DNA of 35,069 bases from NCBI GenBank assembly GCA_037445735.1, contig JBBIJY010000028.1:1-35069 (forward strand), written 5' to 3'. Each line of letters starts with the position of its first letter. Position 1 is the stretch's first letter. The notes beneath the pieces were generated by a model, which saw only the letters and a program-made list of their open reading frames with translations, made no database searches and was not told where the DNA came from. Made by a program: the position numbers and the translations under genes. This stretch comes from Armatimonadota bacterium. GTDB taxonomy: Bacteria > Armatimonadota > Fimbriimonadia > Fimbriimonadales > GBS-DC. Positions 3,095-20,413 of the stretch are shown here, in pieces.

Positions 3095-3120
3095 CTGACT
3101 GCCTCCTGATGCTGGGCATA

Positions 3121-3158
3121 GAAAAAGAGCCTCTCACACGCGGGGCGAGAGGCTCTTC
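3121..3158 (-). terminator. Intrinsic terminator-like hairpin in the rpsL leader
   Basis: AAGAGCCTCTC (3125-3135) pairs with GAGAGGCTCTT (3147-3157). On the minus strand the stem is followed by TTTTT, about 27 nt before the rpsL ATG. Confidence 0.75.
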
Positions 3159-3325
3159 GGCAGTGCGCCTTCAGGCGCATTCAGCCAGGTCTCGGACACC
3201 TCTTGCGGTGTCCGCGCCTCCGATAAGCCCCGTGTGCAGATGCACAGTGCCGTCTGCTGGTTCGGTTCATCGTTCGCTCATGAACCTCCCGACACACGCC
3301 TGCCCAGCACAGACGCGCATCCGAG
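3121..3325 (-). ncRNA. Structured ~200-nt leader or ncRNA upstream of the str operon (unassigned)
   Basis: Lies between the promoter (3331-3360) and the terminator. Hairpins GGTTCAT/ATGAACC, GGACACC-GCAAGA-GGTGTCC and GCGCC-TGAA-GGCGC, plus long-range pairings. Confidence 0.55.
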
Positions 3326-3330
3326 CCAGT

Positions 3331-3360
3331 ATTATATCCAATCGCATGCGAAAAAGTCAA
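3331..3360 (-). promoter_or_regulatory. Sigma70-type promoter for the str leader
   Basis: TTGACT (3360-3355), 18 nt, TATAAT (3336-3331). Confidence 0.8.
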
Positions 3361-3369
3361 GGGGGTGCG

Positions 3370-3531
3370 GGGCGGGTTCGAAAATTCCAACCAGAGGCAA
3401 GGATACCTCTCACCCCGACCCTCTCCCCAAAGGGGAGAAACTAACCCCCCTCTCCGCCTTTGGGAGGAGAGGGTACGGGTGAGAGGGCTTCACTCAGGTC
3501 GATATGATGCCCCGAATTTTCGAACACCCTC
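3370..3531. mobile_element. MITE-like element, copy 1 (TIRs enclosing an inverted pair of CCCTCTCCC palindromic repeats)
   Basis: Clearly homologous to 20246-20413. Right end TTTTCGAACACCCTC (3517-3531); left end GGGCGGGTTCGAAAA (3370-3384, 12/15 match). No coding capacity. Confidence 0.7.
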
Positions 3532-3539
3532 GACACCCC

Positions 3540-3567
3540 TTGACTTTTGCCGAAAGTGGGGTATAAT
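3540..3567 (+). promoter_or_regulatory. Sigma70-type promoter for the HNH transcript
   Basis: TTGACT (3540-3545), 16 nt, TATAAT (3562-3567). Confidence 0.75.
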
Positions 3568-3574
3568 AAGGGTG

Positions 3575-3724
3575 ATGCGGGAAGCCTATACGGTTCGCTT
3601 TGGTTCGACACGCTGGAGCACAGGCTCCTGGTTTGGCATGCGCAGCCGCTACCGTAAGCGGCTGATGCCGCCATACCGGGGGAGCCTGCGCCTGTGCTGG
3701 CGTGCGGCTCCCCGTTTTTATTAG
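3575..3724 (+). promoter_or_regulatory. Attenuator-like leader with a leaderless 49-codon uORF and terminator/antiterminator
   Basis: ATG 7 nt after the -10 box opens MREAYTVRFGSTRWSTGSWF...APRFY*. Terminator GGGGAGCC..GGCTCCCC-GTTTTT (3679-3719). Alternative pairing CAGGCTCC (3621-3628) with GGAGCCTG (3681-3688). Confidence 0.6.
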
Positions 3725-3741
3725 CAGGAGGTCGCCAGCAG

Positions 3742-4281
3742 ATGGGTGAGGTACTGGTGCTGAATCAGAACTTTGAGCCGTTGAACCTCTGCTCGATGCG
3801 CCGCGCGGTGAACATGGTGCTGGCGGGCAAGGCGGAGGTGGTGCGCACGAACGGGCACTTCATCCGCACGGTCAACGGCGGTTTCGAGGCGCCATCGGTG
3901 GTGCGCCTGCGCTATCTGATTAAGCGTCCGCTGCCGCAGGTGCGCATCAGCCGCCGCGCCATCCTGGCGCGCGACCGCTACACCTGCCAGTATTGTGGGC
4001 ATGTCTCGCGCGATTTGACGGTGGACCATGTGATCCCGCGCCGTCTGGGAGGCGGCGACACCTGGGAGAACCTGGTCGCCTGCTGCCGCCGGTGCAACCA
4101 TCTGAAGGGCGACCGCACACCTCATCAGGCGGGCATGAAGCTGATTCGCAAGCCGCGCCGCCCGAACTTCGTGCCCTACCTGAGCCTCACCCAGTATGTG
4201 AAGGCAATCTCGCGGGAAGCGTGGCGCGAGTTCCTGCCCCTCTACGAGGACTTCGCCACCACAGAAGTCGAAACCGATTGA
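3742..4281 (+). CDS. HNH endonuclease with N-terminal PLMP/RRXRR-like segment (IshB-like, 179 aa)
   Basis: SD AGGAGG before ATG 3742. [10 protein letters not shown]...TVDHVIP...[18 protein letters not shown] is a Zn-binding HNH. N-terminus [31 protein letters not shown]. Confidence 0.9.
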
Positions 4282-4290
4282 AGGGGGCGC

Positions 4291-4388
4291 TCTGTCTTCC
4301 TCGCCCAACACTTAAGCGTCAGCGGGAGAGGGGGGGCATCTTTCAGCCCCCCATCCCCTTGCTGACGGGTGGTTGGGCAGGAGGCAGA
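4291..4388. repeat. ~98-nt imperfect inverted repeat between convergent genes (possible bidirectional terminator)
   Basis: Nested arms TCTGTCTTCCT/AGGAGGCAGA, GCCCAAC/GTTGGGC, CGTCAGC/GCTGACG, GGGGGGC/GCCCCCC. Confidence 0.75.
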
Positions 4389-4392
4389 AGTT

Positions 4393-4737
4393 TCACTTGC
4401 CACGCGGCATCACTTTAATATCGCCGGGCTTCAAGCCGGGAATGCCACCATCGCCTGCCAGCCAGCCGCCCTTACACTCGTGGCAGACCGGCTTGCCCTG
4501 CTCGGCATTATCGCCACAGGGGCAGGCGCCCATCGCAATCATGCACTGATCGCACGGATGCTTCAGACAGCAGTTGTAGGTTCCCTTCTGGATAGCCCGC
4601 TTCTTCTCGGCGGCGATGGTCGCCGCCGCCCGTTTGACCGCTGGCGAGCGCATATCCTTCATCTGGGCAACCACAATCGCCAGAACGCCTGCCAGCACAA
4701 TTGCCATTGCACCAAGAATCAGCCGTGTATAGCGCAT
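4393..4737 (-). CDS. Small exported Cys-rich hypothetical protein (8 Cys)
   Basis: Signal-peptide-like N-terminus (..LAIVVA|Q); CCLKHPCDQCMIAMGACPC...VCHEC; SD GGGAGGGAG. Confidence 0.8.
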   Translation of the reverse strand: MRYTRLILGAMAIVLAGVLAIVVAQMKDMRSPAVKRAAATIAAEKKRAIQKGTYNCCLKHPCDQCMIAMGACPCGDNAEQGKPVCHECKGGWLAGDGGIPGLKPGDIKVMPRGK

Positions 4738-4786
4738 CGCTCCCTCCCGTGGGGGAGGGAACGAACGGGTGGGGTTGCGGGTTCCA

Positions 4787-5653
4787 TCAGGTGGCTTTCA
4801 GCGTGCGCGCGGTCTCTTCGGCGAGGCGCATCCAGTCCTGCAGGCGGAGTTCTTCGGCGCGGGCGGAGACGGGGATACCCGCCCGACGCAGAAGCGCGGC
4901 GGCACGGTCGGCATCATCGAACAGCGCGGCGAGCGCGTTGCGCAGGGTCTTGCGCCGTTTGCCGAACCCCGCCCGCACCAACCTGAAAAACCAGCGCTGC
5001 TCAACAGGCGGCAGGCGATCGGGCACAGGCACAAGGCGCACAATCGCGGAGTCCACCTCCGGCTGTGGATAGAACGCGCTCGCGGGCACGCGACCCAGAT
5101 ACTCCACCTCCGCATGGTACTGCGCGAACAGCGACAGCGCACCATACGCCGAGCCACCCGGCTGGGCGACCAGCCGCTCCGCCACCTCCTTCTGCACCAT
5201 CAGCACCAGCAGCGACAGATAAGTCCTGGCGGAGAGCAGATGCTCCAGCAGCGGCGAGGTGATGGCGTAGGGGATGTTCGCCACCACTTTCGCCGTCTCC
5301 TCGCCCCGCAACAGCTCCGGCACGGGCAGGCTCAACACATTCGCCTGAATCAGGGTGATGTTGGTCAGCTCCTGCTGGTGGATGAGGTTGTCCAGGATTG
5401 CCACGAGGCGGGCGTCCACCTCGACGGCGATCACGCGGCGGGCGTGCTCCGCCAGCATGAAGGTGAGCGCGCCCAGCCCCGCACCCACCTCCAGCACGGC
5501 GTCGGTCGGCTCCAGCCGCGCCGCCTCCACCACACGCGCCGCCACACGCCGATCGGTCAGAAAGTTCTGACCCCACCCTTTAGAAGGGCGGACGCCGTAC
5601 TCCGTCAGCCACGCGCGAATCTGGCGCACCGAAAAGGGATTAATCGCCGCCAT
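4787..5653 (-). CDS. rsmA: 16S rRNA m6,2A1518/1519 dimethyltransferase
   Basis: GQNFL, LEVGAGLGALT, VANIPYAIT, MVQKEVAERL, FYPQPEVDS, RRKTLRN. Start trimmed to ATG 5653 to avoid overlap with argB. Confidence 0.96.
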   Translation of the reverse strand: MAAINPFSVRQIRAWLTEYGVRPSKGWGQNFLTDRRVAARVVEAARLEPTDAVLEVGAGLGALTFMLAEHARRVIAVEVDARLVAILDNLIHQQELTNITLIQANVLSLPVPELLRGEETAKVVANIPYAITSPLLEHLLSARTYLSLLVLMVQKEVAERLVAQPGGSAYGALSLFAQYHAEVEYLGRVPASAFYPQPEVDSAIVRLVPVPDRLPPVEQRWFFRLVRAGFGKRRKTLRNALAALFDDADRAAALLRRAGIPVSARAEELRLQDWMRLAEETARTLKAT

Positions 5654-6613: not shown

Positions 6614-7441
6614 ATGGCACGAAAGGCGAAGTGGCTTGGAATTATCGGCGTCGCAACGGCGCTGCTCGGCGTTGCTATTGCGCAAACGCCCGTGGACAAA
6701 CTGAAACAGACGGGCAAAATGTCGTTCCAGCTGCTGGATGCATCGTACTTCATCAATCTCGGCGTCAATTGTGACATCCCGGCTTTCTCTGGCAACCTTG
6801 GCAACCAGAACCCCATCTGCATCACGCTCTCGGATCTCAACAATGATGGTGTCGCTCTCGATTTCCGGGTTCGCATCCGGGATATGGTCAACTCGATCGA
6901 CTCTGACGAGACGGTCGACTTCATCGCGACCGTTTTATCGTCCAACCAGGTTCGCTGGAATGCGCGGCGCACCTTCAGTCCACCTCTTTGCGTGGTCATT
7001 ACCATTGAGGGAAGCCAGTATCTCTTCCAGATGGACGAGGTTTATGCCCGGTTCCAGCTGCAGCTCACCGAGGGCAGCTGTATGACTGATCCGTATAGCT
7101 GTCTGGCGAGCGGGGTCGATATGACGCTGGCGCCGTTCGGGGGCGCGGCTGAGAACTATATGGGCTTCAACGGTCGCGCAATGCTGGGCGGCGATTGCAA
7201 CTCGGGTCCCGTGCCTGCCTGTGCCCGCGCGGAGGATCTTCAAATCAGCGCCTACAGCGGCGGGCTATCCATTCGCGGCGATGTTAATGGCGATCGTGTG
7301 GTGGACGACGCCGACCTGCTGGCTGTGCTGTTCGCCTTCGGGCAGAGCGGCTCCGGGCTTGACGAGGACATCAACCGCGACGGCACGGTGGATGACGCCG
7401 ACCTGCTGATCGTGCTGTTCAACTTCGGCAGCAGCTGCTGA
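6614..7441 (+). CDS. Secreted hypothetical protein with C-terminal dockerin-like double EF-hand domain
   Basis: SD GGAGG; signal peptide ending AIA|Q; C-terminus GDVNGDRVVDDADLLAVLFAFG...EDINRDGTVDDADLLIVLFNFGSSC. Confidence 0.85.
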   Translation: MARKAKWLGIIGVATALLGVAIAQTPVDKLKQTGKMSFQLLDASYFINLGVNCDIPAFSGNLGNQNPICITLSDLNNDGVALDFRVRIRDMVNSIDSDETVDFIATVLSSNQVRWNARRTFSPPLCVVITIEGSQYLFQMDEVYARFQLQLTEGSCMTDPYSCLASGVDMTLAPFGGAAENYMGFNGRAMLGGDCNSGPVPACARAEDLQISAYSGGLSIRGDVNGDRVVDDADLLAVLFAFGQSGSGLDEDINRDGTVDDADLLIVLFNFGSSC

Positions 7442-7762
7442 AGCCCCCTCACCCGTACCCTCTCCCCCACTGGGGGAGAGGGTCTTGGTTTTCTCCTCTT
7501 CCCGCTGGGGAGGGGGGTTAGGGTGAGGGCTATTCGCAGGCGCGGGGTGAGATGCCCCCTCACCCGTACCCTCTCCCCCGCTGGGGGAGAGGGATTCGAT
7601 ACCCCTCTCCCGAAGCTTTGGGAGAGGGTTGGGGTGAGGGGTTTTCTACCAGCGTGCGGTGCATAGCCCCCTCACTCGTACCCTCTCCCCCGCAGGCGGG
7701 GGAGAGGGACTAAACTTGCCCCTCTGGGGAGCGGGGCTAAACTTCTCCCTCTCCCCCTGGGG
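7442..7762. repeat. Cluster of BoxC/REP-like palindromic repeats (CCCCTCACCCGTACCCTCTCCC..GGGAGAGGG) in alternating orientation
   Basis: Units at about 7442-7482, 7490-7531 (inverted), 7554-7593, 7602-7641 (inverted) and 7665-7708, with partial units to 7762. Confidence 0.85.
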
Positions 7763-7843
7763 ATGATGGGCAAACTGGGAACCCAAACTGGCAGGAATCT
7801 CGACCAATGGGTAGAATCTTGTAAGCGAGGAGGTCGCAGAGCA

Positions 7844-8689
<846 letters not shown>

Positions 8690-20245: not shown

Positions 20246-20413
20246 GAGGGTGTTCGAAAAATCCAACCAGAGGAAAGGCTGCCCCTTACCCCGACCCTCT
20301 CCCCAGCGGGGGGAGGGAGTCATTAGCCCCTCTCCCCCGCAGGCGGGGGAGAGGGTACGGGTGAGGGGGCTTCACTCAGGTCGATACTATGCCCCGAATT
20401 TTCGAACACCCTC
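20246..20413. mobile_element. MITE-like element, copy 2 (168 bp)
   Basis: Perfect 15-bp TIR GAGGGTGTTCGAAAA / TTTTCGAACACCCTC; flanks CCCACCCCT and CCCACTCCT (8/9 direct repeat); internal inverted BoxC-like pair. Confidence 0.75.

Follow-up and report, generated by a model that had tools for sequence, protein, structure and literature searches.

We analysed a 35,069-nucleotide stretch of DNA from an Armatimonadota bacterium of the order Fimbriimonadales (assembly GCA_037445735.1, contig JBBIJY010000028.1, positions 1 to 35,069; hereafter, the window), in which a gene for a 179-aa HNH nuclease is directly preceded by a promoter, an unannotated small open reading frame (ORF) and a predicted intrinsic terminator (Table 1). 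An original prediction, made from the sequence letters, had called the nuclease IshB-like, meaning a PLMP domain followed by an HNH domain and no RuvC, and had proposed that the structured leader in front of it could be released as a small RNA that partners the protein. Our analysis supports the identity of the nuclease and gives the leader a different character: codon statistics show the leader ORF to be under purifying selection as a protein, and we consider it fairly probable that the leader acts as a ribosome-dependent transcription attenuator of the nuclease gene.

Table 1 Features of the nuclease locus (positions in the window).
Feature	Position	Strand	Description
Predicted sigma-70-type promoter	3540-3567	+	-35 TTGACT 3540-3545, 16-nt spacer, -10 TATAAT 3562-3567
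Small leader ORF, unannotated	3575-3724	+	49 codons, ATG 3575, TAG 3722-3724
Invariant peptide core RWSTGSWFG	3611-3637	+	Codons 13-21 of the small ORF
Candidate antiterminator, 5' strand	3618-3629	+	Motif codons S-T-G-S-W; pairs with 3680-3691 (terminator 5' arm)
Inner hairpin P2	3628-3680	+	5' arm in conserved codons F-G-M-R-S-R-Y-R
Predicted intrinsic terminator	3679-3719	+	Stem 3679-3692 with 3699-3713, U-tract 3715-3719
Shine-Dalgarno sequence AGGAGG of the nuclease gene	3726-3731	+	10 nt 5' of the nuclease ATG
IshB-like nuclease gene	3742-4281	+	179-aa ORF; PLMP, Zn-HNH and basic C-terminal tail
PLMP domain	3742-3921 (~residues 1-60)	+	Profile and fold comparison
Zn-HNH domain	3949-4143 (~residues 70-134)	+	Pfam and alignment
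Long GC-rich hairpin	4284-4394	not applicable	Occupies the interval that separates the nuclease gene from the convergent ORF 4393-4737 (-)

The nuclease ORF, with the N-terminus and the zinc-binding HNH domain originally described for it, was confirmed by ORF calling and by Pfam (HNH_5 at 2.9e-15, residues 82-134; HNH at 2.4e-13). The best NCBIfam match was guided_IscB (7.3e-20; 71 bits, far under the 175-bit cut-off), with Cas9d second; similarly, a profile built from 40 members of the nuclease family had TbaIscB (HNH domain, 1.5e-18) and Cas9d-type proteins (about 1e-12) among its matches. Profile scans with Pfam and NCBIfam found no RuvC or further domain. The nuclease looks catalytically competent, because the four zinc cysteines (CxxC...CxxC) and residues D95, H96, N110 and N119 are all invariant in the 40-sequence alignment.

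The PLMP domain, which had been called by eye, was borne out by both of the comparisons that had been suggested for it. The Pfam RRXRR/PLMP profile matched below threshold and in register (16.3 bits, E 0.0093, cut-off 25; residues 4-42 on profile positions 1-39), and matches of the same kind (16.3-19.3 bits) were obtained for 17 of the 40 family members. AlphaFold2 (AF2) models reached a pLDDT of 88.3 for the whole nuclease and of 89.7 for residues 1-62 alone, the latter predicted as a four-stranded sheet with one helix. When this 62-residue model was aligned to 48,161 PDB representatives without the Foldseek pre-filter, the top five chains were the N-terminal ~50 residues (PLMP) of HfmIscB, TbaIscB, OrufIscB, DtIsrB and another IscB (Z of 7.5, 7.5, 6.4, 6.0 and 5.4; rmsd 1.8-3.2 over 48-49 residues), and the sixth chain had a Z of 3.1. 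Foldseek of the same residues placed IscB/IsrB at ranks 1-4 and 6-10 (TMq 0.58-0.66, E at least 0.075). The N-terminal domain of initiation factor 3 (IF3-N) was also among the fold matches, with a Z of 2.8. Together with a length of 179 aa, the fold and profile matches support an IshB-like architecture, namely a predicted PLMP domain plus HNH, no RuvC and ~180 aa. As a separate observation, the PHROGs phage family phrog_16726, annotated as HNH endonuclease, matched nuclease residues 3-164 (E 5.6e-37); because the match spans the PLMP part, PLMP plus HNH proteins exist in phages or prophages too.

We then considered how the gene is distributed. Its own genome (99% complete) carries a single copy, the only other match being weak and limited to the HNH region (E 1.5e-6). 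Exactly one match was found in each of the 41 genomes searched in the same order and, at E ≤ 1e-20, in 140 of 151 genomes sampled evenly across Armatimonadota (138 of the 148 high-quality ones). Sequence identity followed distance, with 93-98% in the genus, 74-86% in the family and 56-61% in the order; the homologue of Fimbriimonas ginsengisoli is 59% identical. The family is frequent in Chloroflexota and Acidobacteriota too (at least 590 tblastn relatives), and the 5,243 protein clusters related to it at E ≤ 1e-10 are named just 'HNH endonuclease' or 'McrA'. The gene lies beside rpsL-rpsG-fusA (divergent) and faces a Cys-rich ORF and an rsmA-like gene (convergent). There is no transposase near it, and the sole Y1_Tnp match of the genome is on a contig (C1:175227-175559) other than that of the nuclease (C28). 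The nuclease gene is a chromosomal, single-copy, vertically inherited core gene and not a mobile element; the locus has neither the multiple copies nor the adjacent TnpA of an IS200/IS605-type element.

The promoter in front of the gene fits the consensus at 11 of 12 positions, and a scan of the region returned 3 promoter-like sites against 0.4 expected. A -10-like hexamer occupies the identical offset in 25 of 25 relatives from the window's own family (f1). The -10 element ends 7 nt 5' of the ATG of the small ORF, which would make the transcript near-leaderless. The encoded peptide belongs to no family in Pfam, NCBIfam, PADLOC or PHROGs, and the 49-aa sequence had no relative in a word-indexed protein database; searching a leader profile against 1.84 billion representatives returned four proteins at E ≤ 1e-10, each of 57-63 aa and of the same leader type. 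The consensus among relatives is M-x11-12-RWSTGSWFG-x-R-x-R-[YF]-R, with the core variants RWRTGSWFA, RWSTGNWM and HWRCDNWF in other families. Upstream of the nuclease, 34 of the 41 order genomes carry the motif W-x-x-[GD]-[SN]-W (27/30 loci plus 7/11 further order loci), and both Trp codons of the core are invariant in all 33 distinct sequences. The strict motif occurs once in the window's own genome and thus belongs to the nuclease gene. Two loose matches (C46:5166 and C6:70530) were rejected as chance occurrences, lying inside the coding regions of other genes with neither promoter nor terminator.

Variation in the leader concentrates at third codon positions, the entropy of the core being 0.31/0.49/0.92 by codon position and that of the Arg codon preceding the first Trp 0/0.33/1.76. 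The second Ser codon of the core changes between TCC/TCT and AGT from family to family, a switch that abolishes a small local hairpin present in the window. By the Nei-Gojobori method, applied to 25 family sequences, dN/dS over codons 1-27 was 0.23 in frame versus 1.96 and 0.91 in the shifted frames, and over the core (codons 9-27) it was 0.13 in frame versus 3.07 and 0.77. These codon patterns show that the leader ORF is under purifying selection as a protein. Beyond codon 27 the leader DNA is read in different frames by different genera, so the constraint on the peptide is limited to the N-terminal part of the ORF. Codon adaptation of the leader was 0.61, versus 0.75-0.80 for the nuclease gene, fusA and rpsL, which is suggestive, though not decisive, of non-optimal codons. 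A complex prediction for the nuclease with a 34-residue leader peptide scored 0.00 with the verdict 'no answer', and is evidence neither way.

The terminator hairpin (-29.0 kcal/mol, z -4.83) lies within the small ORF, and the P2 hairpin inside the leader is of comparable stability (-32.7 kcal/mol, z -5.06), with P2-equivalent hairpins of different sequence in other genera. A leader ORF is thus placed between a promoter and an intrinsic terminator directly before the gene. From the U-tract to the nuclease ATG there are 22 nt, which include a Shine-Dalgarno sequence whose GGAGG is nearly invariant in the upstream alignment of relatives; because of this short distance, and because the promoter scan found no further promoter-like site between the promoter at 3540 and the nuclease, the nuclease is expected to be transcribed by read-through alone. 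The terminator stem is almost invariant in the 25 family relatives, and a terminator was found in 31 of the 34 motif-bearing order loci by our own hairpin-plus-U-run rule. In the window and in most motif loci, the stop codon of the small ORF is located 3' of the U-tract; the terminated transcript of ~145 nt would therefore lack a stop codon. Loci L118 and L124 are exceptions to this, as are most of the other lineages of Armatimonadota.

The conserved codons of the leader also have the potential to pair with the 5' arm of the terminator. RNA 3616-3694, from which the 3' arm of the terminator is absent, was predicted to fold into one extended hairpin (-50.2 kcal/mol, z -5.1) that pairs 3618-3629 with 3680-3691, and this antiterminator conformer is the minimum free energy structure of the whole leaders of L011, L013 and L024, which come from three other genera. 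Across the 25 family sequences, the antiterminator pairing is kept in 95.6% of cells, versus 29-54% when slid by 1-3 columns. In most loci of family f1, the terminator arm paired best with the motif window (-18 to -27 versus a median of -8 to -13 kcal/mol); in the other f1 loci, its preferred partner is located 21-33 nt further 3' than the motif. The structured leader of the original prediction was confirmed: it runs from promoter to terminator, is conserved and has strong local hairpins. As a whole, the 176-nt leader is only mildly more stable than its shuffles (z -2.08, with 7 of 200 shuffles equally stable). In loci L011-L023 of genus g3, a CCCC run in the 3' part of the terminator can pair with GGGG(G) 10-12 nt downstream, across the U-tract and before the Shine-Dalgarno sequence; this extra small hairpin would exist in read-through transcripts only.

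Leader ORFs are found in the same position elsewhere in the phylum. The seven order genomes that lack W-x4-W, like other Armatimonadota, have small ORFs of a different kind there, among them a widespread class with ...SLR-x-LEDG-x-C-x-R-x-H... / ...RLLDDS... and a second class with ...HWRHHRFGH.... In the SLR/LEDG class, synonymous changes and six-fold Arg/Leu codon changes are visible by reading the upstream sequences, without statistics. Among 25 other Armatimonadota loci, 19 have a terminator ≤170 nt before the nuclease start, and for 16 of the 19 the stop codon of an ORF of 30 codons or more falls between -20 and +15 nt of the stem start; the corresponding controls gave 1/19 at each shift (40, 60 and 80 nt) and 0/19 on the reverse strand. 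The order of hairpin, 6-12 nt, Shine-Dalgarno sequence and ATG is maintained across the phylum, and the terminator sequences vary freely between families and resemble generic GC-stem terminators. In a case described in PMC4824070, termination fell from ~90% to <10% when a stop codon 28 bp ahead of a terminator was moved to 5 bp ahead of it, the effect was lost when translation was uncoupled, and full termination needed more than ~27 nt. By analogy, the ORF stops across the phylum are where a ribosome would interfere with the terminator.

A different gene context was observed in another part of the family. Of 75 loci scanned for their upstream neighbour, a set drawn mostly from Acidobacteriota (loci L052-L113), 52 have a ComF-type gene (Pribosyltran plus double zinc ribbon) directly 5' of the nuclease on the same strand; these loci come from related genomes, and hence count as one lineage-level observation. 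The Acidobacteriota-type upstream sequences examined show ~30-45 open codons in the nuclease frame ahead of the match, and a leader ORF with a terminator was not seen in them. Such an arrangement would regulate the same nuclease gene in another way.

In the attenuator that we favour for the Armatimonadota leader, the strong promoter would start the mRNA at or adjoining the AUG of the 49-codon ORF, and the conserved codons (RWSTGSWFG...RYR) would pair with the 5' arm of the terminator to form an antiterminator. The position of the leading ribosome would then set whether the polymerase stops, leaving the ~145-nt non-stop transcript, or continues into the nuclease gene. If the ribosome stood at the motif codons or immediately beyond them, it would remove the antiterminator and let the terminator fold; with no ribosome, or with one that keeps up with the polymerase into the terminator, read-through would be favoured. 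The conservation of the leader at the peptide level suggests that the nascent chain itself could set the speed of the ribosome through a programmed pause or arrest. The conserved peptide is what sets this leader apart: by analogy with SecM and TnaC, it may be a nascent-chain pause or arrest signal, and it may instead be a small protein in its own right. The control of termination by translation, its direction, the arrest function of the peptide and the signal sensed are all inferred.

The attenuator is supported by the layout of promoter, ORF and terminator, by the selection on the ORF as a protein, by the alternative pairing, by an architecture that persists across the phylum with changing peptides, by the precedent in PMC4824070 and by the single occurrence of the motif in the genome. 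Several observations weigh against it. No compensatory base changes for the antiterminator or the terminator were found in the family, where both are almost invariant, so that the two structures rest on thermodynamics and on the conservation of pairing potential. In distant families, the best competitor for the terminator arm is located 21-33 nt 3' of the first Trp codon, off the motif. A ribosome-masking fold model speaks for the attenuator, with terminator probabilities of 0.00-0.90 without a ribosome for the 9 leaders in which the real terminator was picked, and mostly higher ones with the ORF region masked as by a ribosome, but it is a crude model for qualitative use, covers 10 of 15 leaders, and in L031 picked a hairpin that is not the terminator. 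An ORF open through the terminator was also considered as a signal of selection and was rejected, since 30/34 loci are open in frame and 26/34 and 24/34 in the other frames. Finally, classical attenuators need no conserved peptide, and part of the leader signal may reflect a peptide with a function of its own.

A rival view is that the small ORF encodes a trans-acting micro-protein, either the product of a non-stop mRNA limited by trans-translation or a partner or inhibitor of the nuclease, with a terminator that mainly ends its own gene. The purifying selection on the peptide would suit such a protein, as would the small, basic and lineage-specific nature of the peptides; the stop codon beyond the terminator in family f1 would leave terminated transcripts without a stop, and elsewhere the ORF of other lineages has an ordinary stop codon at the base of the terminator. 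The gene brfA, which has a terminator inside its coding region and a tmRNA-tagged product, is a precedent, and the leader shares with ArfA and BrfA a small basic ORF, an intrinsic terminator within the coding region and a terminated mRNA without a stop (PMC6881298). It differs from them in having no sequence similarity, in being always linked to the nuclease, and in the normal stop of the ORF in most other Armatimonadota lineages. Known ribosome rescue factors are, for their part, mutually unrelated in sequence. We nevertheless regard the micro-protein as unlikely, as conservation covers just ~27 residues and the reading frame of the tail differs among genera. Furthermore, the peptide family is wholly replaced across the phylum whereas the nuclease stays 45-60% identical, which is a poor fit for a binding partner, and no family or homologue was found beyond these leaders. 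The nuclease also has no room for a promoter of its own and must therefore be under the control of the terminator, regardless of the role of the peptide.

An alternative that we judge about equally improbable is that the PLMP domain binds the leader RNA, either terminated or as the 5' untranslated region, by way of the terminator hairpin beside the Shine-Dalgarno sequence, for autoregulation or in a complex resembling the 3' end of an omega RNA. The predicted PLMP fold of the nuclease speaks for this binding, as do the hairpin-to-ATG layout kept throughout the phylum and the nearly fixed terminator stem within the family. The PLMP domain of IsrB is described in PMC9581776 as contacting the 3'-terminal hairpins of its omega RNA and the Shine-Dalgarno sequence just 5' of the coding region, and as resembling the N-terminal domain of IF3, which was itself among the fold matches here. 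These similarities are offset by the free divergence and generic GC-stem appearance of the terminators between families, by the lack of any Rfam, HEARO or omega match, and by a covariation signal that does not extend beyond the hairpins; the 5' segment is coding, and its best short genomic matches (E at least 0.076) yielded no target. The discrete small RNA of the original prediction is retained in part: a terminated ~145-nt transcript is plausible, but its role as a partner or guide is unsupported.

The searches for an omega-type RNA were negative throughout. None of 4227 Rfam families reached its gathering score on 3100-4800, and at E up to 10 the same scan gave just sub-threshold microRNA-like matches to palindromes. 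The covarying scaffold with a variable segment that had been anticipated did not emerge: the RNAalifold covariation term for the leader was -1.04, i.e. almost none, and the 5' segment is coding sequence without a target-like match in the genome, where a short-match search for a guide target gave chance-level hits (E at least 0.076), mostly to the GC-rich terminator. Rfam, codon conservation and the target search thus gave no sign of a cognate omega or HEARO RNA with guide and scaffold at the locus. A programmable omega-type guide RNA, in which a variable 5' guide and a conserved scaffold direct HNH cleavage within a mobile element, would fit the location 5' of a PLMP gene and a leader whose 5' part varies more than the conserved stretch and terminator that follow it, but we consider it very improbable, given one gene copy per genome in all 41 of the order and 140 of 151 of the phylum, a sole Y1 match on another contig, a leader that is unique in its genome and whose 'variable' part changes synonymously as codons, and an element of ~145 nt with no Rfam family at threshold.

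A broader evolutionary scenario can be drawn from the same elements, and we hold it to be quite unlikely as a whole. The nuclease would be an ancient housekeeping IshB enzyme and not cargo of an insertion sequence, with its expression wired to translation through a nascent-peptide leader sensor that decides between the non-stop abortive transcript and read-through. Its IF3-N-like PLMP domain would bind its own terminator hairpin and Shine-Dalgarno sequence, and this would represent the non-mobile ancestral state of the omega RNA 3' end of IsrB and IscB and, ultimately, of the tracrRNA scaffolds of Cas9. The nuclease may in that case act on nucleic acids linked to stalled translation.

Downstream of the nuclease gene, the hairpin that had been noted at ~98 nt is present and very stable, but it spans ~111 nt (4284-4394; -68.2 kcal/mol, z -5.3, 0 of 200 shuffles as stable) and is kept in the closest relative alone. 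It is unique in the genome and, of 11 relatives compared, was found only in the 98%-identical L005, with different sequences or hairpins at this place in the other 10. It is probably a species-specific bidirectional terminator or a palindromic element, outside any conserved unit. Convergent with the nuclease gene, on the minus strand (4393-4737), is a 114-aa ORF whose product has a hydrophobic segment at the N-terminus and is rich in Cys towards the C-terminus, where several CxxC-like pairs occur.

Several intergenic spaces of the window (3404-3488, 7507-7757 and 20282-20368) hold GC-rich palindromic repeats of one family, some of them in tandem and one just 5' of the leader promoter, with arms of the type CCCCTCACCC.TACCCTCTCCC / GGGAGAGGGT.GGGGTGAGGGG. 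These repeats are the source of the sub-threshold microRNA-like Rfam matches. They look like REP-type elements, and the Y1-transposase match at C1:175227-175559 could be the matching RAYT. Two further proteins on the plus strand were assessed by eye: of those at 6614-7441 and 7763-8689, we take one to have dockerin-like C-terminal repeats and the other to be a prepilin-type protein (N-terminal methylation motif) that is DUF1559-like.

The name IshB was reportedly given by Altae-Tran et al. (2021) to ~180-aa PLMP plus HNH relatives of IscB and IsrB. The same architecture and length are described in PMC11610941 and PMC10734217, whose passages on IshB give no function or RNA partner; likewise, the passages in PMC10530073 and PMC13284715 place IshB among the OMEGA nucleases, or as a possible ancestral state, without a function or RNA partner. 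The nuclease described here resembles IshB in its 179 aa, its N-terminal PLMP fold, an HNH domain closest to those of IscB and Cas9d, and the absence of RuvC. It differs in lying outside an insertion sequence, as a single-copy and near-universal gene of its phylum with no adjoining TnpA, no omega-like RNA and a probably translated leader.

The leader itself resembles attenuators of the trp and pyrBI type, with a promoter, a short leader ORF, an intrinsic terminator and the regulated gene right after it; the candidate antiterminator would exclude the terminator. As in those systems, the stop of the leader ORF falls within the terminator, at it or beyond it, where a ribosome could block the terminator; the leader ORF of pyrBI runs through its terminator. 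The differences are a leader peptide that is conserved (dN/dS 0.23), an mRNA that looks leaderless, and a regulated gene that encodes a nuclease and not a biosynthetic operon. A second likeness is to the arrest peptides SecM, TnaC and MifM: a short, lineage-specific upstream ORF with ~20 conserved residues, including a critical Trp, whose conservation ends where the stall site would lie, and which has unrelated replacements elsewhere while the regulated gene is kept. In contrast to these, the leader has no similarity to known arrest motifs, and its output would be termination at an intrinsic terminator.

Of the branches of the IscB/IsrB/Cas9 lineage, IshB is the least understood, and the present case indicates that such a family can occur once per genome, on the chromosome, in nearly all members of a phylum, a distribution that speaks for a cellular role over a selfish one. 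What appears as a conserved 'RNA' before the nuclease is probably a translated leader with a candidate terminator switch, which corrects a tempting reading as a guide RNA. The W-x4-W leader ORF would offer an experimental handle on when cells want the nuclease, and the lineage-specific conserved leader peptides are candidate regulatory nascent chains in a poorly studied phylum.

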